A DNA stretch of 64,000 nucleotides. Origin: Minisyncoccia bacterium (GTDB lineage: Bacteria; Patescibacteriota; Minisyncoccia; Phycocordibacterales; Zambryskibacteraceae). Shown piece by piece: positions 1-52,447 of this stretch. Location of the stretch: the NCBI GenBank assembly GCA_049304015.1, contig JBAQNS010000016.1, forward strand, positions 143 through 64,142, read 5' to 3'. The number at the start of each line of letters is the position of its first letter. Position 1 is the first letter of the stretch. The position numbers and the translations under genes are program-made. The notes beneath the pieces were generated by a model. It saw only the letters and a program-made list of their open reading frames with translations, made no database searches and was not told where the DNA came from.

Positions 1-1
1 T

Positions 2-103
2 CAAAGGTTGGAAGACGCTCTGAAGAGAATTCGCGCTCTGGAGAGGCAAGTCCGCGAGCTGAGGACCAGGCAGCATCAGTCGGACGATATCCCGATAGGG
101 TAA
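2..103 (+). CDS. C-terminal fragment of an unknown protein (coiled-coil-like tail ...LEDALKRIRALERQVRELRTRQHQSDDIPIG*)
   Basis: Open frame running in from the window edge to TAA at 101-103. GC looks markedly higher than the backbone. Followed by a hairpin plus T-run. Confidence 0.3.
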   Translation, partial: QRLEDALKRIRALERQVRELRTRQHQSDDIPIG

Positions 104-133
104 CCAAAACACGAGCACTGCTCGTGTTTTTTC
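104..133. terminator. Bidirectional intrinsic terminator (aaaacACGAGCactGCTCGTgtttttt)
   Basis: 7-bp GC stem flanked by an A-run on the left and a T-run on the right. Sits between the upstream fragment (+) and the rpsA 3' end (-). Confidence 0.55.
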
Positions 134-166
134 TTGTCTTGTGCAACATCGAATGTTGCTCAAAAA

Positions 167-1318
167 TTATTTTACTTCCTTCGCGTCCTTGTCTAAATAG
201 GTGAGCGCCATCTTTTGTTCCTTAGCATCAAAGAGAGTAATCTTGAATGGATAAGTTTTACCCATTTCCAGTTTCTCTTTGAGTTTGTCTTCACCTCCAA
301 ATTCACTGACGTGTACAAGTCCAGCCACTCCTTCCTCAATAGAAGCAAGAGCACCATGCTTGTTGTATTTGATGATGACACCCTCAACTTGCATATCTTT
401 CTTATATTTCTTCTCTGCTTCCTTCCAAGGGTTTTCCTTGAGAGCTTTGATAGAAAGGGAAATCTTCTCATCCTTTATCTCTATAATCTTGACCTTCACC
501 TTTTCTCCGATTCTGTACATGGCTTTTGGATTCTCTACTAGACCCCAATCAATCTCAGAAATGTGGACGAGTCCTTCGAGTCCTTCTTCAAGCTTCACAA
601 AGATTCCAAAATCAACCAAACCAGTCACTTCACCAGTGAGTTCATCACCCAAGGCATAATGAGAGATAATTGATTCTTTGTTCTTGGTTTCTGGAGACTT
701 CTCAGAGAATATAAGCTTGCCTTCCTTTGGATTGGCACCAATGATAGTGACCAAAAGTTTTGTGCCCACAAGTTTCTTTAATTCAGCGAGGATGCTGTCC
801 TTGTCTCCATCAGTGACACGTGGATAGTGCTCAGGTTTAAGTTGTGAAGCAGGGAGGAAACCACTAATACCTTGCCAATTGATAATGAGTCCACCCTTGT
901 TGGCTTCGGTAATAGGGAGTTCGAAAACTCGCTTCTCATTTATAGCTGTATCTGCTTCACTCCAAATAAGAGCTTGTCTAGCTTCCTTGAGTGAGATTTC
1001 TATATAACCTTCTTTGCCTCCGATGCCCACAACCTTACCAGCGACAATGTCGCCAATATTGATTTTCTTGATGATATCCCTGGCATTCAAAAACTCTCGT
1101 CCATATATAATACCGGTGCCGAAAGGAGCAAGGTTTATATAAACCGCACCCTTATCAATACTAATAACTGGTCCCTCGACTACATCATCGATTGATGGAG
1201 GAGTGGCAGTGTTTAAAACTATTTGACCCATCAGGCTCGTGTCTTCTACGACAGGAACCTTTTCCTTCTTAACTTTTTCTTTTTTAATCAAAATTTTATA
1301 GCCATTCTTGGTCCTCAA
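167..1318 (-). CDS. rpsA: 30S ribosomal protein S1 (four S1 RNA-binding domains)
   Basis: 383 aa with repeated S1-domain signatures (GxV.GxV..F GaFV.l, HISEI). Confidence 0.8.
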   Translation of the reverse strand: MRTKNGYKILIKKEKVKKEKVPVVEDTSLMGQIVLNTATPPSIDDVVEGPVISIDKGAVYINLAPFGTGIIYGREFLNARDIIKKINIGDIVAGKVVGIGGKEGYIEISLKEARQALIWSEADTAINEKRVFELPITEANKGGLIINWQGISGFLPASQLKPEHYPRVTDGDKDSILAELKKLVGTKLLVTIIGANPKEGKLIFSEKSPETKNKESIISHYALGDELTGEVTGLVDFGIFVKLEEGLEGLVHISEIDWGLVENPKAMYRIGEKVKVKIIEIKDEKISLSIKALKENPWKEAEKKYKKDMQVEGVIIKYNKHGALASIEEGVAGLVHVSEFGGEDKLKEKLEMGKTYPFKITLFDAKEQKMALTYLDKDAKEVK

Positions 1319-1339
1319 GCTTCAAGAGTGTTTGCCAAA

Positions 1340-1860
1340 GCTTGAGGGGTAACAAAAACGGTGGTTATTAATTTATCCCGCCGTGGCGGGACTCGGGCAA
1401 TATAGCAGAAAAAAGGAATTTTGTAAACATAAAACGCGTCCCGTTCGGGTACGCGCGTTGCTTTGAAAATTGATGTTTCGAGGTGTTACCCCGTGGTCGC
1501 CGGCGTCGATGGCCGGCGACCACGGGACTATGCCGTTTGTCCCTCGGCCTGTGGCCCAGTAGTCCTGATGAAGGCTGGAACGAACCCGTTGGCTTTCCCC
1601 AGTAGGGTGCCAAGTTGGGCAACTTCGTGGCTTAATTCACCCCCTCATTTCCAGGATCGTCCTGGCGACGCAAGAGTCCGAAAGGGGAATTCGTCCCCTC
1701 GGCGATCCAAAAACTACACGGAAGTTCGAGGTGAGGACATGCGGCCCTCTGCGCTCGAGCGTGACTGGAGAAGCTCCAGCCCGCGGTCCCTCGCGGTCGC
1801 GCCGGCTTTGAAAAGCGGGGTGGCCACCAGGGAAAACATCAATTGGAAGGAACGTTCACT
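1340..1860. ncRNA. GC-rich, ORF-poor, hairpin-dense segment: candidate structured RNA (identity unresolved; RNase P RNA, tmRNA and 6S considered)
   Basis: About 500 nt with GC far above the flanks. Perfect 13-bp hairpin ccgtggtcgccggc/gccggcgaccacgg at 1491-1525. Long-range complement GGGGTAACA (1345) with TGTTACCCC (1486). Several other GC stems. The only ORFs (1463..1927 +, 1368..1622 -) have low-complexity, implausible translations. Confidence 0.35.
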
Positions 1861-1988
1861 TGTTATCCTATCATACTATTCAAATATTGTCAAGCAATTA
1901 AATTATAAAATTGTCAATAGGGGCTAAACAGAGCCATATTTGCTCTAAATTTACTGGTATTAAATACTGAATATGCTAGAATATACAT

Positions 1989-2624
1989 ATGATAATCACT
2001 TTCCAAGGTTTGGAGTCATTTCGAGTTTCTCAGGGAGACACCACCATAGCCCTTAATCCAGTATCCAAGGATTCTAAGTTTAAGTCTTCAAAATCTGGAG
2101 CAGATATAACCCTTATTACTACTAACCATCCAGACCTTGCAGGTAAGGATGCCACTAGTCGCGGTGATAAAGAGTCGTTCATCATAAGCGGTCCGGGTGA
2201 ATATGAAGTCAAAGATGTTGGAGTGAAGGGTTTTCTTTCGGAAAGCCTATATGGAGGAGAAAAACGTATTAATACTATTTACCAAATTTCCTTCGAGGGT
2301 ATGAACCTCTGTTTCCTTGGAGCTCTATCGAATCCGATGCTTTCTCCAGAGATTATTGAAGCCATAGAAGATGTAGATATTCTATTTGTACCCATTGGGA
2401 GTGAAGGAGTACTCGACGCTGCTGCAGCATATAAACTGGCAGTTTCCCTTGAACCAAAAATAATCATCCCTATGCACTACGGACAAATTGGAGACAAGAA
2501 TGCTTTGAAGTTGTTTATAAAGGAAGGAGGTGAAGAAGATGTAGAGTCTACGGACAAACTAGTGGTGAAGAAAAAAGACCTCGAAGGTCGAGAGGGCGAT
2601 GTTGTCATTCTTAAAGAAGAATAA
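1989..2624 (+). CDS. Metallo-beta-lactamase-fold hydrolase (UPF0173 / UlaG-like)
   Basis: 211 aa matching the MBL-fold metal-dependent hydrolase pattern (HxD.., PIG, IPMHYG). Confidence 0.5.
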   Translation: MIITFQGLESFRVSQGDTTIALNPVSKDSKFKSSKSGADITLITTNHPDLAGKDATSRGDKESFIISGPGEYEVKDVGVKGFLSESLYGGEKRINTIYQISFEGMNLCFLGALSNPMLSPEIIEAIEDVDILFVPIGSEGVLDAAAAYKLAVSLEPKIIIPMHYGQIGDKNALKLFIKEGGEEDVESTDKLVVKKKDLEGREGDVVILKEE

Positions 2625-2633
2625 TTTATATTT

Positions 2634-3002
2634 ATGAAAAAATATCTTTCAGAAATACATACTAAGTCTCCTGAGCATAAGAAAAAATTTGCACTCAGTG
2701 TTTCTCTTGGAATAACTTTGATTATCTTTGGTATCTGGTCTTTGGTTAAATGGAGCGACCTATCAAAGAAGGATGTTGTAGTAGAAAACAGTCAACCAAT
2801 AGCTGATGAGATCACTCCAATTTCTAACCTTACAAGTGGTATTGCGAATTCTCTGGAGGCCATCAAAACCACAGCCACTGATTTGAAAAATTCTGTTAAT
2901 CAAGTCAATCTTCAAAATCAATATGAGAATATAAGGAATGAAGCTCTTCCTGCAGATGCTCAAAATGGTAATATAGACACCACTAATACTAATGGCCAGT
3001 AA
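2634..3002 (+). CDS. Small membrane-anchored hypothetical protein
   Basis: 122 aa with one N-terminal TM helix followed by a polar tail. Confidence 0.4.
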
Positions 3003-5463
3003 AGATATCAAAAAAGAAGAGGATAAAACACCGCTTACTCGTACGAGTGCGGTTGTTTCTCGTTCGATTACTACAGAGATGAAAGAATCGTTCATCGACT
3101 ATGCAATGTCGGTGATTACTGATAGAGCTTTACCTGATGTTCGAGATGGTTTGAAACCGGTGCATCGAAGAATTCTCTTCTCTATGAATGAGAAAGGTCT
3201 GACCGCAAGTGCTAAGAGCCGTAAGTCAGCTACAGTAGTTGGAGATGTGCTCGGATCGTACCACCCACACGGCGATGCTTCTGTTTATGAAGCAATGGTG
3301 AAGCTTGCTCAAGATTTTTCTACTAGGTATCCACTCATTATTGGTCAGGGTAACTTCGGTTCTATAGATGGAGACGGGGCGGCTGCGTACAGATACACCG
3401 AGGCCAAGATGAGTCGTGTGGCCAGCGAACTTTTGAATGATATAGACAAAAATACAGTTGATTTTAAAGCCAACTATGATGGCACCAAGAAAGAACCAAC
3501 AGTCCTACCTTCTGCACTTCCAAACTTACTTTTGAACGGTACCCTCGGTATTGCTGTGGGTATGGCCACCAACATTCCTCCACACAATCTCACTGAAGTG
3601 GTAGATGCCACTATTAAACTTATTGATGAGCCAAGTACTTCGACTGAAGAATTACTCGAGTCAGTAAAGGGTCCAGACTTCCCAACAGGAGGCATAATTT
3701 TTAATCAAAAAGAGATTCATCATGCTTATGCGACTGGTCGTGGAGGTATTGTGGCTCGAGGAGTAGCTGACATCACTGAGAACAAAGCAGGAAATTTCCA
3801 AATCATTATCACTGAGATTCCTTATAGAGTGAATAAATCGACTCTTATAGAAAAGATTGCTGATTTGGTTAGAGAAAAGAAAATTGATGGGATAAAAGGC
3901 CTCAGAGATGAATCAACGAAAGATATTCGTGTTGTTATTGATTTGAAAACCGGTTCTCAACCACAAAAAGTTTTGAATTCTTTGTATAAACATACTCAAC
4001 TCGAAGATACTTTCCATGTGAACATGGTGGCGCTGGTGGATGGGGTGCCTCAAACATTGTCTCTAAAGACAATGCTCCAAGAATTCATTAAGCACAGACA
4101 AGTGGTGGTAAAGCGTCGAGCCGAATTTGATCTAGAGAAGGCTCTGGCTCGTGAACATATCTTGCTCGGGTTATCCAAAGCCCTTGATCACATAGAAGAA
4201 GTCATAAAAATCATTCGTGCTTCAAAGGCTGTAGAGGATGCGAAGGTAAACCTCATGAAGAGATTCAAGTTTTCTGATCTCCAAGCCAATGCTATCCTCG
4301 AGATGCGTCTACAGAAACTAGCCGGACTTGAGAGGAAAAAAATTGAAGATGAACTTAAAGAAGTACAGACACTCATTGAAGAACTCAAAACTCTTTTGGC
4401 TTCAGCCAAAAAAATGCTCGCTGTGGTTAAGACAGAATTACTCGCTGCTCGAGATAAATATGGAGACGATAGACGTACAAAAGTTATCAAAGGCGGAGCC
4501 AAAATACTTTCTGTGGAAGATATGATTGCTGAAGAAGAAAATGCTCTTGTACTCACTTCTGGTGGTTACATCAAACGTACTAATCCAGACGAATATAAAA
4601 AGCAGAAACGAGGAGGTGTGGGAGTAGTGGACTTAGACACTAAGGAAGAAGACTTTGTCACTCATTTCCTCACTGCTTCGACTCATTCAGATCTTTTGTT
4701 CTTCACAGACAAAGGCAAAGCTTATCAAATCAAGATGTATGACATTCCTGAAGGTAAACGCGCCACCAAAGGTAAGTCTATTATGAACTTCATCTCACTT
4801 TCAGATGATGAGAAGATTACTTCGATTCTACCTATGTCTAAGGAAGCCAAGAATATCGAGGGAGCACTCCTTATGGTAACTGAACAGGGTACAGCCAAAA
4901 AGGTTGATGCCAAGTCGTTCCACGATGTTCGTTCATCTGGAATTATTGCCATCAAACTTGCTGCTGGGGATAAACTTATTTCTGTCTCACTCGTGATAAA
5001 GGGCGATGATGCTACTATTGTGACTAAAGATGGTCAATCTATAAGGTTCAAGGAGTCTGATATTAGGGAAATGGGTCGTGGAGCCGCTGGAGTGCGAGGT
5101 ATTAAACTTTCTAAAGGAGATAAAGTAGTTGGTGCTCATGAGATAAAGAAAGAATGGAAAGATGCACACCTACTTGTCATTTCTGCCAACGGTTATGGTA
5201 AACGCACCGAACTTTCTGAATATAAGGTTCAAGGCAGAGGTGGTTCAGGTATTTTGACTTCAAAGGTGACAAGTAAGACAGGTAATGTGATGGCTTCTCA
5301 AATCGTGACCGAAGACAGTGAAGAAGTGGTAGCTATATCTAAGAAATCTCAGGTTGTGCGTGTAGACATAAAAGAAATCCCAGTGCTCGGTCGTCAGACT
5401 CAAGGCGTACGCATCATGAAGCTCCGAGAAGGTGATTCTCTCGCATCTGTGATTTGTTTATAG
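2992..5463 (+). CDS. gyrA: DNA gyrase subunit A
   Basis: 823 aa with [24 protein letters not shown] and the active-site Tyr region. C-terminal beta-pinwheel repeats present. Confidence 0.9.
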
Positions 5464-29339: not shown

Positions 29340-29805
29340 AGTTTTTTTGACGGGTGTAGATTATAAATTCCCCCCAACGGCCGTTGGAGGGAGGCGACCC
29401 ACCCTTTCACCAGGGACAGTCGATGGTGTCAGTTCTTCGCTCCCGGATGCGTGACTGCTTTCGGGGGGACCTTCCGCCGTAGCGTTTCTGGCGCAGCGTA
29501 AGGTCAGCTGCACCGGCCACTTGAGCCCTTCCGCTCAGATTTAAGTGGTCAGCAGGACAACTCATGGTTCACCGGATGGTGGACAACATGGTGGGGGAAG
29601 GCCCGCTATCCCGGTCGCTTCGACGACCTGCGTTTCGGCCGAACTGCCCGATAGCGCTCCACGGCGAATCAGTGGATCGGACTCTCTCTTGGGTCAGGAT
29701 CAGTACAACTCATGACTGACAACCTGGCCCAGGCGAGGGACCCCGATGCTCTACGAGCAAACACACACAGCCGCGACCGCAAGGTACGCGGTTATTTTTT
29801 ATATA
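29340..29805 (+). ncRNA. GC-rich ORF-free segment ending in an intrinsic terminator: candidate structured RNA (unidentified)
   Basis: About 460 nt, GC-rich, with no ORF of 60 aa or more on either strand. Possible promoter TTGCAA-17-TAGATT at 29332-29366. Hairpin plus T-run at 29771-29800. Many local GC stems. Confidence 0.3.
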
Positions 29806-29890
29806 CTTAACCTTTGACAAACTTAATTTTTTATGATAGTAAGAGTACAGAGCAGTTGTCCTTTTAGGCTACTTTTCAGGAGGTATTTCC

Positions 29891-31024
29891 ATGCGCAAGA
29901 TAAGATGGTTGCTGGGAGCGTTGGTGCTCGTCACTGCGTGTCAGCCTGACCGCTTGATCAGCATCAAGATCGACGACAGTTCGAGTCATCCTGGCTCAGG
30001 AACTGTGTTGGTCACCGGGGTGACCGTCACCTCGTCGCCGAACATCACTCTGTCGATCGGGGTGTCGTGCACAAACACGACGTCTCAGATTGTCGTCGCA
30101 GTTGCTCCGGCAAATGCGACGAACACCGCCGTCAGCTACACTGTCACGAGCCACGGCTCAGTGATGGTTAGCTCGACTGGTCTCGTCACCGCTCTCAAGG
30201 CGGGGACGGACACGGTGTACGTGACTTCGGTCGCTGACGCTTCGAAGAAGGCGTTCGTGGTAGTGACGGTGTCTGGCACCTCGTGTGCTTCAACGCCGGC
30301 TTGTCCGAACGGCTTCAGTTCTTGCAGTGGTGCACGATGGAGCGATGCGGGGATGACTCCGCAGGACACAACGTACACCTTCAGCCACAAGCGGCACGTG
30401 AAGGGTCTCACTTACATCCCGAGTGGTGTGAGTACCGAGATTCTTGTGCGTTCCGCGCTGGGTTGTGAGGCTGCGGCCAGCACGCCGCAAGTCATCGCGA
30501 CATCGTTGGCGAACGTCTATGCGGTGGATGTGGAGCTGCAGGCAATCAATATCTGCAGCGACAGTACGGTCTTCAAGTTGAAGGCCGACTCGACGCAGAA
30601 GAAGGCGGTCCATGTGACCGTTGTCTCTGCTCCGGGTTCTGTCCGGCTCAATCCTCCGACGACAATCGGAGGTGTGGGTGCCACTGGCAAGTACACCTGC
30701 ACAGTGAGTGGTTTGGCGGACTTGCGTTGCTGGTTCTATTCTACCAATCCGTTGGTAGTGTCCATCGTTCAGAAGGACACTACGTACACCGCTGCCACGT
30801 TCCCGTGGCCGGCAGGTGCAAACATCGGTGGTACGTACAAGAACCTCAGCGCTGGATCTGCGGGTATCTGCACCTTCAGTCCGAGCAATCCGGCCATCGC
30901 GGATTGCAAGAATCATGTAGTGTCGTCTGGCTCTGCCTTGATGGCCGGCTCGGGTCTCATGGCTCAAGCCGAACTTCAGGAATGGGCAGTGCCTGAGGTT
31001 CTAAGGGTTCTCACAAAACCCTAG
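29891..31024 (+). CDS. Lipoprotein with bacterial Ig-like (BIG2) domain; GC-rich gene
   Basis: Lipobox LVTAC. BIG2-like repeat (VTGVTVTSSPNITLSIG...TVYVTSVAD). Strong RBS caGGAGGt. Terminator at 31037-31070. Confidence 0.6.
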   Translation: MRKIRWLLGALVLVTACQPDRLISIKIDDSSSHPGSGTVLVTGVTVTSSPNITLSIGVSCTNTTSQIVVAVAPANATNTAVSYTVTSHGSVMVSSTGLVTALKAGTDTVYVTSVADASKKAFVVVTVSGTSCASTPACPNGFSSCSGARWSDAGMTPQDTTYTFSHKRHVKGLTYIPSGVSTEILVRSALGCEAAASTPQVIATSLANVYAVDVELQAINICSDSTVFKLKADSTQKKAVHVTVVSAPGSVRLNPPTTIGGVGATGKYTCTVSGLADLRCWFYSTNPLVVSIVQKDTTYTAATFPWPAGANIGGTYKNLSAGSAGICTFSPSNPAIADCKNHVVSSGSALMAGSGLMAQAELQEWAVPEVLRVLTKP

Positions 31025-31145
31025 CGGGTAACAACGGGCTAGCACCTTCGGGTCGCTAGCCTTTTTCTTTATCCAGAATGTTATATTTAATGAATTAATC
31101 CCGTTAGAAGTTTTGAGAATAATTTATTACATTTATAATTAACAA

Positions 31146-32293: not shown

Positions 32294-32569
32294 ATGCCTA
32301 GCAAAGGCGAAGCGACAACTCTGAAGGCGGTGGTACAAAAGGTCGTCGATGGCAAACACGGCTGCTATGCAGTTGCCACTTCAAGCAAAATTGAAGGATC
32401 CATTACGTTTTCGTTGGATCCGGACGTTTGGCAAGAAAAGGCAAAACCCCAAGAGGGTTACGAGGTTGTCCTTGGCGATATCAGGAAGAAGTCCGCTGGA
32501 TGGCGGGCCCATTCCGCACGTTTCCTGAGGCCTGAAGATAAGGTCTCCAACAGCAGCAAAAAGCACTGA
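32294..32569 (+). CDS. Small hypothetical protein, first gene of the GC-rich operon
   Basis: 91 aa. Preceded by promoter TTGACA(32170)-17-tgcTATCTT and RBS AAGGAGG. Confidence 0.4.
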   Translation: MPSKGEATTLKAVVQKVVDGKHGCYAVATSSKIEGSITFSLDPDVWQEKAKPQEGYEVVLGDIRKKSAGWRAHSARFLRPEDKVSNSSKKH

Positions 32570-32582
32570 GCAAGGAGCCAAC

Positions 32583-33218
32583 ATGGCCGGAAGAATCAAA
32601 CAGTTTCTTGTTGATCAGAAATTGATCACAGGAGACGGTACACAATCTGGAAGCGCAGTGAAAGCTGCGCCGACACAGACTGCAAGTGTCGCCTCGATGC
32701 CACGCCCTGTGGCTACGGTGGGTGTAGCCGACACTGAATACGTCGGTGCCCTCCGTGAAGCGATGACGAAGTCAACAGTGAATGGATTTCAGGAATTCCA
32801 AGATCAACTCGGAATCTTTGAATCCGTTCCTGGAATGGACGAACCGATGCGTTTCCGCACTGCTATCACAGCTCTCTCAAAGAGCTCTGGTATCAAGCGG
32901 GATCAAATCGTGAAGGCCTCCGAAGATCGTCTTCGGATTCTGGTCGCGGCGCGCGATGAATTCGCCCACACGATCGAGGAGCGTCGTAACCGAGAACTCG
33001 GCAGCAATGAGGCTGACTTGTCAGCCACTCGCGCCGAGATCGATACGAAGCGCAAGGAAATCCAGGAGCTTGAAGGCAAGCTCCAGCAACTCGAAGTCAA
33101 GAAGCAAACGATCAACCAGAAGCTCACAGCTGCAAGCACTGCTTTCGGCAATGCTTATGCGGTTGTGGAAGCGGAGGTCAGATCGTTTGTCTCGAAGCTC
33201 ACGCAGTATCTCACCTAG
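32583..33218 (+). CDS. Soluble coiled-coil protein (PspA/TelA-like guess, weak)
   Basis: 211 aa. C-terminal half is heptad-like (RAEIDTKRKEIQELEGKLQQLEVKKQ). GC-rich. Confidence 0.4.
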   Translation: MAGRIKQFLVDQKLITGDGTQSGSAVKAAPTQTASVASMPRPVATVGVADTEYVGALREAMTKSTVNGFQEFQDQLGIFESVPGMDEPMRFRTAITALSKSSGIKRDQIVKASEDRLRILVAARDEFAHTIEERRNRELGSNEADLSATRAEIDTKRKEIQELEGKLQQLEVKKQTINQKLTAASTAFGNAYAVVEAEVRSFVSKLTQYLT

Positions 33219-33238
33219 CAACCAGCAAGGAGTATCAC

Positions 33239-34291
33239 ATGAGTGAAGTCCCAGCTGTTCAAGTTCCTCTTCCCCTGAAAAATTGGGTGAAGGGAACGAA
33301 CGGTGCCATGGCAGTTCTGAGTCTCGGTGCTGGTGCGATGATCGCCTACCTGGCGCTCCCCACCATCATCACGCTCCTCACGAATACTGCCATCGCTCTT
33401 GGTTGGCTCGTGGTTGTCGGTGCCATCGTTGGCGCCGGCTTCCTGATTCTGCCCATCATCTTTCACCTGTGGCCGAAGATTCGGTACCAGCAGAAGGTGT
33501 GGGCACTCGCTATCGCTGAACAGATGGTCAAACGTGACCCTGTTCGGTGGTCGCAGATCTACATTGATGACCTCAAGAAGAAGGCGCAAGCCCTTCTTGG
33601 TGCCATCACTCAGGCAGTCAAGTCTCTGATGACGGCAAAGCGCAAGCGCGATGAGAACATCAAGCTTCGCGACGATGCTCGAGCGAAGGCCCAGGCCGCT
33701 TACAAGGCGGGCAACCAGGCCGAGGCTGTTCGGTGGGAACGCGCTGCCAAGCGCAAGGATGACGCCATCGCTCGTTCAGAGCGTTGGATTCAGATGCTCG
33801 AACTCATCGTTCGCGCTCTGAAGAAGCTGAGTTCAACCCTCGAGACCCGCATTGCGGATCAGGAGGATGAGCTCAAGTCCTACATCGACGAGTACGAGAC
33901 GGCTCAGCAGGTTGAACCCGGCATTCGTGCCGGCATGAATGCGTTGGCTCCCGATGAAGACCTGCGTCACATCAAGGAGTCGGCTATCAAGGAAATGACA
34001 TCCAAGGCTGATGGCATGTACGCCGAACTTGAGATGACGATGGAGGCTTTCCAGCCTATCATCTCTGCTCAGGATCTCGACGATGCCGCGGCATTCGAAA
34101 GGATGTCGAAGGCGTTTGCCCAGTGGGAAAAGGGCGTCGATTCGACGCTCCTCGGCCCTGGTGGCAAGCAGCAGCTCATCGCTGAAACGCTCGACCCGAT
34201 GAATATCCTCAAGATCGAGGGTCCGCGTGGCGAGAAGATCCCTGTGGTCAAGGGAACGAGGGGAAGTTTCGACGATTTGATCGACCGGTAG
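33239..34291 (+). CDS. Membrane-anchored coiled-coil protein (2 TM helices plus long helical domain; PspA/IM30-like guess, weak)
   Basis: Two N-terminal TM helices, then about 250 aa of charged, Ala-rich helical sequence (EAVRWERAAKRKDDAIARSE...). Confidence 0.4.
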   Translation: MSEVPAVQVPLPLKNWVKGTNGAMAVLSLGAGAMIAYLALPTIITLLTNTAIALGWLVVVGAIVGAGFLILPIIFHLWPKIRYQQKVWALAIAEQMVKRDPVRWSQIYIDDLKKKAQALLGAITQAVKSLMTAKRKRDENIKLRDDARAKAQAAYKAGNQAEAVRWERAAKRKDDAIARSERWIQMLELIVRALKKLSSTLETRIADQEDELKSYIDEYETAQQVEPGIRAGMNALAPDEDLRHIKESAIKEMTSKADGMYAELEMTMEAFQPIISAQDLDDAAAFERMSKAFAQWEKGVDSTLLGPGGKQQLIAETLDPMNILKIEGPRGEKIPVVKGTRGSFDDLIDR

Positions 34292-34344
34292 TAGATAGAC
34301 ACATAGCGAAGTTAAGCATCCACAGCAAACACAGGAGCAACACA

Positions 34345-35907
34345 ATGCAGTTCAACAACCGAAGGGGTTCAATCACCTTCAAGGGTGCGATGATCATGGC
34401 CGCATTCGGCTTCATCATCCTCGCCATCATCGGCTTCTTCGTCTACAAGACGGGTGGAGCCAGCAGGGTTTCCAGTGCCTTGAGCGACAGCCGCAACGGC
34501 ACGCTCTCGAGCAAGGAGAAGAACAAGGTCATCCACGTCTGCGTCGTCACCTGGGGTGGCTACGCCGGCGGGCAGTATTTCAACGGCGGCTTCGAAGCGA
34601 CGAAGGATTCGCGGTTCTACAAGGACTACGGCATCCTCGTTGACTTCCCGGTCATCGACAACTTCGATGCATCGCGCAAGTCGTATCAGTCGGGGGAGTG
34701 CAATCTCCTCTGGCAGACGGCCGATGCGTTCTCGACGGAAGTCGGGAACCTGCAGAAGGCTGGTTTTGACCCGCGTGTGCTGTTCCAGTCCGACTGGTCT
34801 CGCGGTGGTGACCTCGTTGTCGCCAAGCGTGGGATCAACTCGGTGAACGATCTGCGAGGGAAGACTGTCGCGGTGGGCTACGGCACACCGTCGCACACCT
34901 TCCTTCTTCGGATGCTCGAAGCCGCCGGCATGTCGGTCAACGACGTGAAGATCGTGCAGGTTCCGAGTGCTGTCGATGCGGCCACGGCTTTCAAGTCTGG
35001 CCAGGTCGATGCGGCAATCGTTTGGTCACCCGATGACCAGGATTGCCTCAAGACCATCCCGGGTTCCAAGATTCTCACTTCGACGCGTGAAGCGACTCAC
35101 ATCATCGCCGATATTTTCTTCGGTGAACAGAAGTGGGCCGATGAACACAAGAAGGAGTTGGATGGACTCGAGGAAGGGTGGTTCAAGGGTGCTGCGGAAG
35201 TAAACACGAATCCCGAAGCTTTTGAGCAGGCGGTCAAGATTTTGGCCGTTGGTCTCAAGCAGCCCGAGGATTTCATGCGTACTGCCATCCGCAACGCCCG
35301 ACTCAGTACGTACGGGGACAACGTGAACTTCTTCAACCTCAATGGCAACGCCACTGGGGTGACGGGAGAGAAGTTGTACCTCGAGACAGGCCGGCTGTTC
35401 CAGGCGAGCACCGATCTCGTGAGTTCGCTCCCTCCGTGGCGCGAAATTACGAACCTCGACGCCCTGCGCTCCATCTCCCTCAAGGGGCCGGAGAACGCAG
35501 CTGAAGCTGAGGAACGGTATACGGTTGCTTCGGCGTCGGAGCGGAGAGCGGAAGCGCTTTCTGTGAAGCCGTTGCCGATCAACTTCGAGACGGGTTCGGC
35601 GACTCTCTCTGAGAACGCCAAGTCCTTGCTCGATCTCTTCGTGCCCACGCTCAATTCCTACAAGAATCGTGTGCGCATCGAAGGGAATACCGACAACAGC
35701 GGTTCTGCTGATGTGAATCGTCGGCTGTCGCTCGCTCGCGCGCGCGCAGCTCGCGATTATTTCGTCAACGAGTACCATTTCGATGTCAACAGGTTCATCG
35801 TCGAGGGCAACGGGCCGGATAAGCCCGTCGCCACGAACGATACGCCTGAGGGCATGGCGAAGAATCGTCGGTCGGAGTTCCAGCTCATTGGGAATCCGAT
35901 CAAGTAG
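34345..35907 (+). CDS. Fusion protein: TM anchor, NitT/TauT(SsuA/NMT1)-type ABC substrate-binding domain, and C-terminal OmpA-like domain
   Basis: N-terminal TM helix. SBP-like core. C-terminal OmpA_C signature NTDNSGSADVNRRLSLARARAARDYF...NRRSEF. Confidence 0.6.
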   Translation: MQFNNRRGSITFKGAMIMAAFGFIILAIIGFFVYKTGGASRVSSALSDSRNGTLSSKEKNKVIHVCVVTWGGYAGGQYFNGGFEATKDSRFYKDYGILVDFPVIDNFDASRKSYQSGECNLLWQTADAFSTEVGNLQKAGFDPRVLFQSDWSRGGDLVVAKRGINSVNDLRGKTVAVGYGTPSHTFLLRMLEAAGMSVNDVKIVQVPSAVDAATAFKSGQVDAAIVWSPDDQDCLKTIPGSKILTSTREATHIIADIFFGEQKWADEHKKELDGLEEGWFKGAAEVNTNPEAFEQAVKILAVGLKQPEDFMRTAIRNARLSTYGDNVNFFNLNGNATGVTGEKLYLETGRLFQASTDLVSSLPPWREITNLDALRSISLKGPENAAEAEERYTVASASERRAEALSVKPLPINFETGSATLSENAKSLLDLFVPTLNSYKNRVRIEGNTDNSGSADVNRRLSLARARAARDYFVNEYHFDVNRFIVEGNGPDKPVATNDTPEGMAKNRRSEFQLIGNPIK

Positions 35908-35996
35908 TTCTTTCTGTACTACACTCCGTAGTACGAGGGGTAGGGCTCTCGTAGTCCTACCCCTTTTTTCTCAAGAGCAGAAAAAGGAGTAAAGCA

Positions 35997-36794
35997 ATGA
36001 GCATTGTCCTGAGGAGCAGACCAAGCTACAAAAGGGCAGTTATTGTCCAAGTAGTAGCTTATGGATTGTTTCTTTTTGGATGGTGGCTCGTAACTGCCGG
36101 GCTTGGATACATCAAACCCGGCATTCTGCCATCACCCACGAGTGTGATTACCTCGTTCATTGCACTGCCGATGACTCGGGAGTTTTGGTTGAGCATGCGT
36201 TTCTCGCTCCTCATTACCATAGTGAGTAGCATTGAAGCTCTTTGCATCACCATACCTCTCGGTCTACTCATCGGTTTGCATCCGGACGCGCGAGCAATTT
36301 TCGAGAAGCCACTTGCGGCCCTGAGGTACCTACCTCTGACCGCACTTCTCGGAGTGTTCATGACTTGGTTTGGCTACAAGGTGAACATGAAGGTTCAGTT
36401 CTTGACCCTCAGCATCCTCGTTTATTTTCTGCCAGCATTCGTGGCTCGAATAGACGCGGTGACGACTGGTCACCTGAACACCATCAAGACACTAGGGGCC
36501 AACAATTGGCAAACGATCAAGAAGGTCTACTGGCCTTCAACGATCGGTCAATTCTTCACCGACATGCGTGTGCTGTCTCCGATTGGATGGACCTACATCA
36601 TTCTGGCTGAAACCATCAATCTCAACGATGGTGGCATTGGTCAGATGATTTTCTCTGCCAGCCGGAGGAGCCACATCGACGTCGCGTTTGCACTTCTGTT
36701 GCACATTGTCTGCATTGCGTTCATTCAAGACAAGGTGCTCATGTTTGCAGACAAAAAAATCTTCCCGTACAAGTACGTGGGAGGTGATCGATGA
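35997..36794 (+). CDS. ABC transporter permease (NitT/TauT family)
   Basis: 265 aa, 6 TM helices, with an EAA-like loop. Confidence 0.65.
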   Translation: MSIVLRSRPSYKRAVIVQVVAYGLFLFGWWLVTAGLGYIKPGILPSPTSVITSFIALPMTREFWLSMRFSLLITIVSSIEALCITIPLGLLIGLHPDARAIFEKPLAALRYLPLTALLGVFMTWFGYKVNMKVQFLTLSILVYFLPAFVARIDAVTTGHLNTIKTLGANNWQTIKKVYWPSTIGQFFTDMRVLSPIGWTYIILAETINLNDGGIGQMIFSASRRSHIDVAFALLLHIVCIAFIQDKVLMFADKKIFPYKYVGGDR

Positions 36795-37618
36795 TTACCA
36801 ACATTCCGTTCTTCGATGATCCCAACAAGGCGAACATCGTGGAGCTCAAGAACATTCGTCAGGCATATCCAACGCCAGACGGTAAGGAAGTGGTGGTCAT
36901 CGACGGGTTGAACCTCTTGATTGAGGACATCCCGAACCAAGGACAGTTCATTTCTCTCCTTGGGAAGTCCGGGTGTGGCAAGTCTACGGTCCTCAATTAC
37001 ATTGCGGGACTGCAGACTCCCACCAGTGGGGAGATTCTTCTCCACGGAGTTCCCAAGAAGGAGTCGGACGTCGTTGGGATGGTGTTCCAGCAGTACTCAT
37101 CCTTCGAATGGATGTCAGTACTCGAAAACGTCATGCTACCTCTCGAATTCAAGGGCGTGCCCAAGAAGGAGAGCAGGGAGCGTGCCATGGCCATGATTGC
37201 GGAGGTCGGCCTTTCGGGGCACGAGCACAAGTATGCTCAGACACCGACGCTTTCAGGTGGTCAACTCCAGCGAGTCGCAATTGCTCGGAGTCTCGTTTCA
37301 AATCCGGACATCATCCTCATGGATGAGCCGTTCGGCGCACTCGATGCCGTCACGAGGCATCAGATTCAGATTCTGCTCGCGAAGCTCTGGGAGACCTACC
37401 AGTCGACCGTGATCTTCGTGACGCACTCTGAATCAGAGGCGGTGTTTCTTTCGGATCAGATCATGATCATGGCTCCCAATCCAGGGAGAATCATTCGTGA
37501 GATCAAGGTCGACCTGCCGTTCCACCGTGACAAGTCCACCAAGAGGACACCTCGCTTCACAGAACTTGTTCGTGAAGTAGAGGATTCTCTGGAGTTCTCA
37601 ATCACTGCGAACGGATAG
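36791..37618 (+). CDS. ABC transporter ATP-binding protein (NitT/TauT family)
   Basis: Walker A GKSGCGKST, signature LSGGQLQRVAIAR, Walker B ILMDEPFGALD. 4-nt overlap with the permease. Terminator at 37661-37693. Confidence 0.8.
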   Translation: MITNIPFFDDPNKANIVELKNIRQAYPTPDGKEVVVIDGLNLLIEDIPNQGQFISLLGKSGCGKSTVLNYIAGLQTPTSGEILLHGVPKKESDVVGMVFQQYSSFEWMSVLENVMLPLEFKGVPKKESRERAMAMIAEVGLSGHEHKYAQTPTLSGGQLQRVAIARSLVSNPDIILMDEPFGALDAVTRHQIQILLAKLWETYQSTVIFVTHSESEAVFLSDQIMIMAPNPGRIIREIKVDLPFHRDKSTKRTPRFTELVREVEDSLEFSITANG

Positions 37619-37755
37619 CTCTTTCTACTCTTGGGCAACCTCGAGTTTTGTACATTTTCAGCCGCATATTCGAAAGGGTATGCGGTTTTTTCTTTATCTA
37701 AAATTCTATAAACATTGACATTCAATGGCTAAATTGCTATAGTAATGCCAAGATT

Positions 37756-49334: not shown

Positions 49335-50822
49335 ATGGCCTCCATCGAAGAAATCCAAGAAGCACGCTTAGGCAAGCTTCAATTATTAAAGGATAAAGGC
49401 ATTAATCCTTATCCAATTGTTTCTCACCAAGACTTTACTAATCTAGTCGCAGTCGAAGATTTTGATTCGATTTCTTCTTCAGGAAAATCTATTTTTATGG
49501 TGGGGAGAATTTTGTCTCTCCGTGCTCAGGGCAAAATTATTTTCATCACCTTTGATGATGGGACGAGTAAGTTTCAAGCGCTTTTAAAATCTGGAGAACC
49601 TCTCCCAGAAGAGACATTTGATTTATTTGAACAAGCATTCGACATAGGCGATTTTGTGGAGATAAAGGGAACATTATTCAAGACTAAAAGAGATGAGAAA
49701 ACTATCCTCGCTGAAGATGTGCAGATGCTCTCTAAGTCTCTCCGCCCTCTACCCGAGAAATGGAGTGGTCTACAGGATCCAGAAGAAAGATTTAGAAAAA
49801 GATATTTAGACATAATTTCAAATCCAGAACTCAGAGCAGTTTTCCAAAGGAAAGCCAAGTTCTGGAACACCATTCGAGAGTATATGCTTTCAAAGAATTT
49901 CCTAGAAGTTGAAACTCCTGTTTTGGAGAACACTACTGGTGGAGCAGAAGCGCGTCCATTTATTACTCACCACAATGCTCTTGATATAGATGTTTATCTC
50001 CGTATTTCAGCTGGAGAGCTATGGCAGAAAAAGTTATTGGTAGCTGGTTTCCCTAGGACTTTTGAGATAGGAAGAATTTTTAGAAATGAAGGTATCTCTA
50101 ATGAGCACCTTCAGGACTACACTCAACTAGAATACTACATGGCTTATGCTGATTATGAGGAAGGTATGAAGATGACCAAGGAGCTCTACAGATTAATCGC
50201 TGACAAAGTTTTTGGCACCACCAAATTCACTATTAGAGGTATGGAAGTTGATTTGGCCAAAGAATGGGAAGTCTATGATTTTTGTACTGTTATTAAAGAA
50301 AAATTTGATATAAATCCACTAAATACAACAGAGCAAGAAGTTTTGGCCGTTTTGGATAAAAATAATATAGAGAGAGAAAAAGACACAAACATAGAGAGGG
50401 GAATCGATTTGCTTTGGAAGAGTTTAAGGAAGACTATCGCTGGTCCAGGATTCCTCATAGGTGTGCCAGTATCAATGGAGCCTCTAGCCAAGAAAAACAG
50501 AAATAATTCAAACACTGTAGAAAGGTTTCAAGTCATCCTTGCTGGTAGTGAGATGGGTAAGGGCTTTAGTGAATTGAATGACCCTGTTGATCAAAAAGAA
50601 AGATTTATGAACCAGCAAGCCAAACGTGATGCAGGAGATGATGAAGCGCAGATGGCAGATATGGAATACGTTGAAGCACTAGAGTATGCGATGCCTCCAG
50701 CATTTGGTTTCGGACTTTCAGAAAGATTGTTTAGTTTCCTTATGGACATGTCAGTACGAGAGACACAACTTTTTCCTCTAATGAGGCCTAAAAATAAAGG
50801 AAATTCTGAAATTGACAAATAG
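49335..50822 (+). CDS. lysS: Lysyl-tRNA synthetase (class II)
   Basis: OB anticodon-binding domain plus class II core (FRNEGIS, GGAEARPF). Confidence 0.85.
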   Translation: MASIEEIQEARLGKLQLLKDKGINPYPIVSHQDFTNLVAVEDFDSISSSGKSIFMVGRILSLRAQGKIIFITFDDGTSKFQALLKSGEPLPEETFDLFEQAFDIGDFVEIKGTLFKTKRDEKTILAEDVQMLSKSLRPLPEKWSGLQDPEERFRKRYLDIISNPELRAVFQRKAKFWNTIREYMLSKNFLEVETPVLENTTGGAEARPFITHHNALDIDVYLRISAGELWQKKLLVAGFPRTFEIGRIFRNEGISNEHLQDYTQLEYYMAYADYEEGMKMTKELYRLIADKVFGTTKFTIRGMEVDLAKEWEVYDFCTVIKEKFDINPLNTTEQEVLAVLDKNNIEREKDTNIERGIDLLWKSLRKTIAGPGFLIGVPVSMEPLAKKNRNNSNTVERFQVILAGSEMGKGFSELNDPVDQKERFMNQQAKRDAGDDEAQMADMEYVEALEYAMPPAFGFGLSERLFSFLMDMSVRETQLFPLMRPKNKGNSEIDK

Positions 50823-50901
50823 GGTAGTTGTGTGCTATAATAGAAAAAGATAACGCTCTTGGACAAACTTGTCCGAACAACACTTTTGCCCGAGGAGGGC
50901 A

Positions 50902-51547
50902 TGTGAACATTCAAAACACTTTCTTCATGCTCATCGCGCTACTCGTACCGCTTGCGGTCGAGGCGCAGAAGGACACCACGAAATTCGAGCCGTATACGTT
51001 TGTCTGGCTAGAAGGTCAGGCAGCCGTGCCGAAGTCTGAACTTGGACTGAAGAAGCCGGTGATTCAACAGAGTGTCTCAACACTCACGTTCGGTCACCAA
51101 GCTTCACAAGGAGTCGGTGTGGTCGCCACTCTGGCTCATGCTAACACTCTCGACTCCGAGGCATGGAACGAAGTGACTCTGACTTGGTCCGTCGCGACGA
51201 AGTCTGGACTGTCAGTTTCTGCTGGTCCGGCTATCGAACAAGTGGGCAAGGTCTACCACAATCGCGGTCGTGTGAATTTCTTCTATGACCATGAGGCGAG
51301 TGCGAGCTTCCTCTACGGTCAGCTCGACGCTGGTCAGGGTACGAGTTGGTGGTGGGTCGACGGCGCCATTTTCATTAAGAAGTTTGTTGGAGTTGGCGTG
51401 CTTGCCCAGATGCCTGACCTTGGTGTTGGCCCGAAGCTTGAACTTCGAATGGGGAATCACGTTTCCATTTGGGGGGCGGGACTTCGTCAGCCAGATACCA
51501 AGGTTGAGTACGGGGTCTTCGGACTCCGACTCAAGTACGACAAGTAG
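50902..51547 (+). CDS. Secreted beta-strand-rich protein (possible beta-barrel), GC-rich; GTG start
   Basis: Signal peptide MNIQNTFFMLIALLVPLAVEA/QK. Alternating hydrophobic/Gly-rich segments. C-terminus ...YGVFGLRLKYDK. Promoter TTGACA-18-tgcTATAAT at 50808-50844. Tandem hairpin terminator at 51548-51603. Confidence 0.45.
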
Positions 51548-51717
51548 TGACCAACACTCGGTGTTGGTCAAGGCGCATACCATCCAGGTATGCGCTATTT
51601 TCATATATTTATAGGGTTAAATTAAAGCTTGACAAATTATATATAATTTGCTATAGTATGTTTAGTTTAGATGTACATTCCACGAGGCATAGGCCTCACT
51701 ACTACGAGGTACACGCA

Positions 51718-52359
51718 ATGCGCAAGCACGCACTGATGTTCGTCCTACTCGCGGTTCTGCTGCCGGTTGACCTCTTCGGTCAGAACCGCATCAGTTCGGT
51801 GAGTCTCGGCTCCGGCCAGGACGCCATCTCGAGCGGCATGACCGGTATCCTCCGGTTCGAGTCGAAGGACAAGAAGCTCTTCGGCGAATTCGCTGCTCAG
51901 CATGAGCAGGCGTGGTTCGCTATCGGGCGGCAGCTCAACGGTCGAGTCAGTGGCTTCGTTGCCGGTGACGTCGGACATTTCCAGGGTGCGCCCTGGTATG
52001 GTCCGTACGTCTCACTCTCGACTCCGCTCTTGAAGATCGGGAACAAGGATCTCTCCATTAGCACTCTGCAGTGGCCCGCGATCTTCGTCTCCAACCCTTC
52101 GAGCAAGACCGGTCAGAAGCTCAACGGGTTCATCGAGCACGTGGGCTATCTGTCCTCGTTCAGCCTGACGCTCGGTCCGGTGTCCTTGAACCATGCGATG
52201 CTCCACTTCCTGAACGATCCCTGGAATTCGCTTCCGGGTGCGTCGATCACACTGCCCATCACGGGTGAGGTGAGCGGAACGACTTCGTACACTCGCAACG
52301 TGAACGGGAAGTTCGACATGTACTTCATGGGAGTCAGCTGGACTCCGTCGAGTAAGTAG
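51718..52359 (+). CDS. Secreted beta-strand-rich protein (possible beta-barrel), GC-rich
   Basis: Signal peptide MRKHALMFVLLAVLLPVDLFG/Q. Promoter AAGCTTGACAA-17-tgcTATAGT at 51623-51660. Terminator at 52371-52415. Confidence 0.45.
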   Translation: MRKHALMFVLLAVLLPVDLFGQNRISSVSLGSGQDAISSGMTGILRFESKDKKLFGEFAAQHEQAWFAIGRQLNGRVSGFVAGDVGHFQGAPWYGPYVSLSTPLLKIGNKDLSISTLQWPAIFVSNPSSKTGQKLNGFIEHVGYLSSFSLTLGPVSLNHAMLHFLNDPWNSLPGASITLPITGEVSGTTSYTRNVNGKFDMYFMGVSWTPSSK

Positions 52360-52447
52360 TTCTGCTTCCTAGCCCCACAGATTAGCTTCGGCTTCTGTCG
52401 GGGCTTTTCTGTTTCAAAATTCCGATACAAAAATGGGGGAATGACAA

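Follow-up and report, generated by a model that had tools for sequence, protein, structure and literature searches.

Large non-coding RNAs (ncRNAs) of the 'GC-IGR' class, such as OLE, GOLLD, ROOL and the raiA-motif RNAs, are lineage-restricted and arise from GC-rich intergenic regions of AT-rich genomes. In the hok-type type I toxin mRNAs, a structured transcript of about 400 nt is closed by the folding back of its 5′ end onto its 3′ end. The CPR/Patescibacteria have tiny genomes, and their ncRNAs are little known. The window described here, a 64-kb stretch of DNA, belongs to a genome of ~40% GC whose flanking proteins are labelled Minisyncoccia in NCBI (Parcubacteria/CPR). Judged from its sequence and from the homologous loci of relatives, a GC-rich stretch beside rpsA most likely constitutes a gene of its own, for a folded ncRNA of ~430 nt on the rpsA strand.

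The genes for ribosomal protein S1 (rpsA, minus strand) and for an MBL-fold hydrolase (plus strand, PF13483) flank the segment as the initial annotation stated; they are divergent, and the GC-rich segment occupies the spacer between them. The sharp rise in GC over the neighbouring coding DNA that drew attention to it is confirmed in 200-nt windows, with 0.55-0.605 across 1401-1800 versus 0.38-0.44 in rpsA, and 0.345 in 1801-2100. The flanking genes have a GC of about 0.41 and the AT-rich stretch at 1863-1988 only 0.26, while 1440-1860 is hairpin-dense at 55-60% GC. The further GC stems reported there are present, and the minimum free energy has a z-score of about -4.3 on each strand (20 shuffles), so that the two strands cannot be told apart by folding energy. 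Elsewhere in the window, coding islands at 29500-31050, 32500-37650 and 50800-52400 reach 53-60% GC, against ~40% for the genome. Their products comprise coiled-coil proteins and a Big_2 lipoprotein, together with an NMT1+OmpA binding protein that is accompanied by an ABC permease and ATPase; two further proteins have no Pfam match. These islands could stem from horizontal transfer or from chimeric assembly.

Read in the direction of minus-strand transcription, the locus contains the following features:

1989-2624, plus strand: gene of the MBL-fold hydrolase.
1463-1927, plus strand: the only long ORF, 154 aa and not conserved.
1865-1893, minus strand: putative promoter of the RNA gene, with -35 TTGACA (1893-1888), a 17-nt spacer and a TG-extended -10 TAGGAT (1870-1865).
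1425-1858, minus strand: predicted transcript of about 430 nt, 60% GC, its ends placed from promoter and terminator.
1834-1844, minus strand: 5′ strand of the closing helix, RNA AAUUGAUGUUU, about 15 nt past the predicted start.
1681-1832, minus strand: variable 5′ domain, 64.5% GC, with several GC hairpins.
1684-1698, minus strand: hairpin GGGGAAUUCGUCCCC within the variable 5′ domain.
1530-1680, minus strand: conserved 3′ core of ~150 nt, from blastn, RNAalifold and covariance model R1.
1651-1665, minus strand: CCAGGA-loop-UCCUGG hairpin in the 3′ core.
1567-1641, minus strand: long irregular stem in the 3′ core, GGUGAA...ACGA...GCCC...UUGGC / GCCAA...GGGU...UCGU...UUCAUC.
1490-1526, minus strand: perfect 15-bp GC hairpin near the 3′ end, arms 1490-1504 and 1512-1526, 7-nt loop.
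1468-1478, minus strand: 3′ strand of the closing helix, RNA AAACAUCAAUU.
1425-1457, minus strand: intrinsic terminator, bulged stem CGCGU-A-CCCG/CGGG-ACGCG, then UUUUAUGUUU.
1399-1427, minus strand: rpsA promoter, TTTACA-17-TATATT with TG, marking the border of the RNA gene but lying outside it.
167-1318, minus strand: rpsA, the left flank of the spacer.

The anatomy is that of an independent ncRNA gene, with its own promoter and intrinsic terminator on one strand, and both are conserved in homologues. Syntenic loci from relatives were retrieved by means of the flanking proteins. The promoter scores 10/12 with TG in a consensus scan, which also placed it at the same position in L004 and, as TTGACA-17-TAGTAT, in L114; by eye it was recognised in L003, L010, L011 and L116 as well. 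Transcription would thus start near 1858. The homologous units have lengths of 392 nt (L004), about 462 nt (L116) and 664 nt (L003). The terminator stem, read from the sequence, folds at -14.1 kcal/mol and is found on the minus strand only; a scan tool missed it in the window but called the equivalents in L004 and L116. Its U-tract overlaps the -35 of the rpsA promoter, which the scan likewise recovered in homologous loci.

Since AAUUGAUGUUU is perfectly complementary to AAACAUCAAUU, the two ends of the RNA would clamp the whole body. This helix, 1468-1478 with 1834-1844, is the genuine long-range pairing of the locus and was absent from the pairings first listed. It comprises 11 perfect bp with strands 355 nt apart (12 bp in the fold, with one G·U), and the CAUCAA motif of its 3′ strand is kept in nearly all variants. 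Just inside that strand sits the long hairpin, first reported as 13 bp (1491-1525), which proved real and longer, a perfect 15-bp inverted repeat with a 7-nt loop.

The order of these elements also invites a cis-acting interpretation, in which transcripts from the promoter at 1893 run into the structured region and the terminator at 1457-1425 sets the flow into rpsA, e.g. in response to S1 or another signal. The unit always adjoins rpsA and is co-oriented with it, even where the MBL side of the spacer has gained small genes (L010, L011, L116), and a closing helix followed by a terminator resembles an aptamer with its expression platform. In L003 and L004, moreover, the 3′ arm of the hairpin is an alternative pairing partner for the sequence beside the terminal helix. 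We nevertheless regard a leader or attenuator as improbable, since the conserved TG-extended promoter (1427-1399) lies between the terminator and rpsA and persists in L009, where the RNA body is absent. Furthermore, the spacers of most relatives, 78-250 nt long, are without the RNA element, and the body is not conserved past a narrow clade, unlike the leaders that bind ligands or proteins. Membership among riboswitches and leaders was rejected on the intervening promoter and on the absence of the element from most relatives. rpsA also has a conserved 5′ UTR hairpin of its own, which likewise speaks against the leader interpretation.

This 5′ UTR hairpin (1316-1352, minus strand) has an invariant loop, UUUGGCAAACACUCUUGAAG, and is found also in L003, L004, L009, L113, L114 and L116, including loci where the GC-rich RNA is absent. 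Its stem covaries, with CCUCAAGCUU/AAGCUUGAGG in the window and CUACAGCUU/AAGCUGUAG in L116; it may represent an S1 leader or an autoregulatory element. The initial annotation had paired part of the same UTR, 1345-1353, with 1486-1494. The complement exists as an 8-nt match (GGGGTAAC/GTTACCCC) but is not maintained in L003 and L004, both of which have GGGGCAGC as the partner with no compensating change. The UTR lies past the terminator and the rpsA promoter, so that the pairing would span two transcription units. Both the intervening signals and the loss in these two relatives indicate that the match is probably due to chance. On the other side of the spacer, the TG-extended -10 of the MBL hydrolase gene (TGCTAGAAT, 1974-1982) ends 6 nt before the ATG (1989), which suggests that its mRNA is leaderless.

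Comparison between the homologous units reveals how the helices have changed. The closing helix has a perfect 13-bp equivalent in L003, with strands 592 nt apart, and a T-A pair of the window is C-G in L003 and L004. Seven different versions of the 15-bp hairpin are preserved (window, L003, L004, L113, L114, L115 and L116), and L119 holds an eighth, with stem mismatches. Two or three pair types occur at 8 of the 15 stem positions and both-sided swaps at 7. On the rpsA-sense strand the hairpin variants contain four G·U pairs and no A·C within the stems, and the G·U pairs of L004 and L115 would be A·C mismatches if read on the other strand. Terminator stems have wholly different sequences among eight variants, every one of which retains a stem and a U-tract. 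In the alignment, one A-U pair of the small hairpin at 1684-1698 (GGGGA/UCCCC) is swapped to U-A in L003. Compensatory substitutions are accordingly seen in four places, namely the closing helix, the 15-bp hairpin, the terminator stem and the small hairpin at 1684-1698. The RNAalifold consensus of the 3′ core has 54 pairs, with 11 G·U cells versus 5 A·C cells on the rpsA-sense strand and one invariant G·U; given that only three full-length homologues can be aligned, the core pairs are mostly invariant and uninformative either way. The compensatory changes and the G·U pattern together fix the strand and favour selection on RNA structure.

Constraint is also apparent in the primary sequence. L003 and L004 are 98-96% identical to the window in S1 and 94-93% in the MBL protein. 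At the four-fold degenerate positions of rpsA, MBL and gyrA the three share only 44-72% identity, and to judge from these positions the species are more distant from each other than the protein identities imply. The 3′ core, with 72-78% identity to L003 and L004 (blastn), is therefore conserved above the neutral level. The RNA has 57-60% GC in all three species, compared to a GC4 of 29-35%, and the 5′ domain, although unalignable among them, has 64-65% GC in each. Neutral sequence would decay towards AT, and selection for structure is thus the simplest explanation of the GC content. These data support purifying selection on the 3′ core and three helices. The initial proposal of a structured RNA is in this way substantiated by the promoter and terminator of the unit, compensatory helix changes, conservation above neutral sites and GC far above neutral.

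An unlikely, though not negligible, explanation is that the segment is non-functional GC-rich DNA, a decayed horizontal or MITE-like remnant lodged between a promoter and a terminator that were there before it. The window has other GC-rich islands, the spacer is a variable locus where GC-rich small genes have been acquired in other lineages, and L009 keeps promoter and terminator without the body. The ends of the segment are inverted repeats (11 bp in the window, 13 bp in L003) and its 5′ domain has undergone large indels. Such an origin should leave other traces, but no second copy was found in the 64-kb window or in 672 kb of related loci, and no protein remnant is detectable. Phage, plasmid and IMG/VR sequences gave no match, and the JGI metagenomes returned the same contig only. 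As read from the sequence, the gap in L009 exceeds the repeat-bounded segment and takes the outer flanks too, and no target-site duplication is visible. Neutral decay should also have erased the compensatory and G·U changes and the 60% GC, which persist though synonymous sites are near saturation. The suggestion of foreign GC-rich DNA thus found no match in phage, plasmid or IMG/VR sequences, and foreign DNA may still be the ultimate origin of the segment.

Protein-coding capacity was assessed in several ways. The claim that the segment is free of ORFs holds in that its sole long ORF, of 154 aa, is not conserved and has no match in Pfam or a protein database, and no homologous ORFs were recovered. 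Stops interrupt all three frames of the corresponding region in L003, and the translations of window and L004 are 31% identical, compared to 93-97% for the flanking proteins. No conserved ORF was found on either strand among the window, L003 and L004, Pfam found nothing in ten stop-free translations of the segment, and tblastx against the related loci and the rest of the window gave nothing below E=0.05. A pseudogene of a GC-rich protein gene, the possibility that the initial annotation had set against its own reading, was hence rejected, both Pfam and tblastx being empty and no residual similarity at the protein level being found. Scanning metagenomes with the best-conserved motif of the core returned the same contig, along with coincidental matches inside coding genes rich in GC (MaoC-like and others); these were dismissed as homologues, since tblastn shows non-homology and only about 10 aa are shared.

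The same data bear on the idea that the unit encodes a small protein or type I toxin-like peptide whose translation is controlled by RNA structure. GC-rich genes for small membrane proteins share the spacer in related loci, and an AUG in the conserved 5′ helix strand (UUGAUGUUU) would be sequestered by the terminal helix. However, the reading frame opened by this AUG differs in length, with 41 aa in the window but 12 aa in L003 and 5 aa in L004, the AUG is not preceded by a Shine-Dalgarno sequence, and neither strand has a conserved ORF; we consider a peptide very unlikely.

Rfam 15 was searched at the gathering threshold over the whole 64 kb, where it found tRNAs only, and at E≤10 with permissive filters on 1250-2000 (751 nt), where only noise was returned, namely a miRNA model on the bare hairpin and Guanidine-II at 14 bits. 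No gathering-level match was found in 19 related loci, and no weak match recurred consistently across seven homologous loci under the E-value thresholds used. Segment and homologues thus stand outside the known families. For RNase P RNA, the bacterial models (RNaseP_bact_a/b) gave no match at gathering, at E≤10 on 1250-2000 or in the homologous loci, and this RNA would be expected in all close relatives, whereas L009 has no body, L114 has a truncated one and most relatives lack it at this locus. ARAGORN found no tmRNA gene in 1-3000, and the Rfam tmRNA models were likewise without match. 6S and SRP RNA were rejected for want of an Rfam match and because the predicted length of ~430 nt compares with about 185 nt and about 100-270 nt, respectively, and group I and group II introns because there is no Rfam match and the segment is intergenic, between two promoters. 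Look-alikes of a hammerhead, a T-arm and P4 seen by eye fail to fold into the helices that such motifs require, and no model supports them.

The initial annotation had likened the segment to the large housekeeping RNAs, and a divergent RNase P RNA, tmRNA, 6S or SRP RNA could in principle be missed by standard models. Size, high GC in an AT-rich reduced genome and a terminal closing helix do recall RNase P RNA, and short strings weakly recall P4 and T-loop motifs by eye. This likeness is outweighed by the failure of every Rfam family at E≤10 and of ARAGORN, by the absence of the element from most of about 70 syntenic relatives as well as its loss in L009 and truncation in L114, and by a sequence that is unalignable at 89% S1 identity, a divergence far faster than known for those RNAs. 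It is highly improbable that such an RNA has been overlooked here; on the searches and distribution given, the segment is not RNase P, tmRNA, 6S or SRP RNA. RNase P RNA and the other essential RNAs are ruled out at this locus by the accessory and lineage-restricted nature of the RNA.

Alignable copies are confined to the window, L003 and L004, with degenerate copies in L114 and L113 (S1 at least 95%), and covariance model R1 gave full-length matches to the three syntenic copies only in 672 kb of related loci. At about 89% S1 identity (L115, L116-L119) the sequence is unalignable and only the architecture persists, i.e. promoter, end pairing, the CCCGUGG... hairpin, CAUCAA and terminator. The model recovered the 15-bp hairpin in L114, L115, L116, L117 and L118, and L113 and L119 were added by reading the sequence. 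Apart from this hairpin module, blastn, nhmmer and covariance model R1 found no homologue outside the closest clade among 85-95 syntenic loci. The body is absent from L009 (MBL 88%), whose terminator is small, and in L114 the unit is down to 223 nt, is richer in AT and no longer has the 5′ strand of the closing helix. Among some 70 relatives at greater distance, the spacer between rpsA and MBL measures 78-2300 nt, and many of these spacers are short and AT-rich. With its absence in L009, its degeneration in L114 and its narrow clade, the RNA appears accessory and lineage-restricted; the same absence and decay imply that it could be drifting or junk in some lineages. Most likely the family is dispensable, outside Rfam and restricted to a narrow CPR group.

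The locus is variable in other respects as well. L003 has about 270 extra nt (3459-3822, 65% GC) in the 5′ domain that are not duplicated from the rest of the RNA. Among L033-L112, the spacers of L037-L042 and L050 contain GC-rich genes, each with ribosome-binding site and terminator, that encode small single-pass membrane proteins, and L007 and L097 have longer GC-rich ORFs in the rpsA-MBL spacer. L056 has an ORF-free unit upstream of rpsA (about 2990-3430, minus strand) with a promoter TTGACA-17-TAATAT. Its closing helix is GUGAAGG..GGGUGG/CCACCC..UUCAC and its terminator ACCGCCAC...GUGGCGGUUUUCUUUU; blastn, nhmmer and the covariance model detect no sequence similarity between it and the RNA of the window, and it matches no Rfam family. 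The contigs of L001, L113 and L120 end on the 15-16-bp GC hairpin or no more than about 25 nt away from it, and those of L002, L006, L010, L011 and L115 elsewhere in the RNA element. These breaks probably reflect the effect of the palindrome or of GC bias on assembly and not biological variation. Hypervariability within populations, which they had led us to suspect, was discarded because four strains with identical S1 carry near-identical RNA bodies.

On balance, and with some reservation, we favour a stand-alone gene for a structured ncRNA of ~430 nt (about 1858-1425, minus strand) that acts in trans as a compact scaffold. A strong sigma-70-type promoter would start the RNA and the intrinsic terminator would end it just ahead of the rpsA promoter. 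The two termini of the RNA would then pair so that the helix encloses the whole body, and this end-to-end helix together with the long hairpin may yield a compact, exonuclease-resistant molecule. The 5′ domain would be free to vary in sequence and length as long as it stays GC-rich. The RNA presumably works in trans and as an accessory rather than an essential factor; most likely it would bind protein or serve as a scaffold by way of invariant internal loops in its 3′ core, in preference to antisense action by a short seed. This mechanism is proposed from the anatomy of the unit. One may further speculate that the RNA is the first representative of a class of 'end-clamped' large RNAs specific to CPR and tied to the S1 gene, with the L056-type units included and with a defined biochemical role, e.g. 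as an RNP scaffold or switch. A conformational switch would in that case operate through alternative pairing of the neighbourhood of the terminal helix with the long hairpin. We hold this broader proposal to be doubtful.

If transcription and structure hold, the RNA would join the few families of large orphan ncRNAs in bacteria and offer a handle on lineage-specific regulation in uncultivated episymbionts. An RNA of 430 nt at 60% GC is costly to keep against AT pressure, and some lineages evidently need it. Narrow distribution and dispensability limit its present importance, and it will be of use to those who catalogue CPR RNAs.

The locus shares traits with several known systems. Like MITEs and other palindrome-associated non-autonomous elements, it is ORF-free, has terminal inverted repeats of 11-13 bp and varies in presence and absence. 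Unlike them, it is single-copy in the 64 kb and 672 kb searched, has no target-site duplication and no precise empty site, diverges vertically among orthologous copies and has a conserved promoter and terminator outside the repeats. With type A RNase P RNA it has in common its length, a high GC content in an AT-rich genome and a terminal helix joining the 5′ and 3′ ends, but no covariance model matches it, it has no CR-I and CR-V (P4) motifs in the proper order, and it is dispensable in close relatives and fast-diverging. The resemblance to hok-type mRNAs lies in a predicted ~400-nt transcript with end-to-end closure and an AUG in the paired 5′ strand, and in the small hydrophobic-protein genes that occupy the same locus in relatives; a conserved peptide ORF and an antisense RNA gene are lacking. 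The GC-IGR RNAs differ from it in that there is no Rfam match to OLE, GOLLD, ROOL or raiA, in its narrower distribution and far less covariation support, and in its location, which is neither near tRNAs nor in a prophage. With these same RNAs it nevertheless shares the absence of ORFs, a GC content far above that of the genome, a length of several hundred nt, many helices and transcription signals of its own. It is a new family of a familiar kind, that of the lineage-specific large bacterial ncRNAs, rather than a new kind of system.
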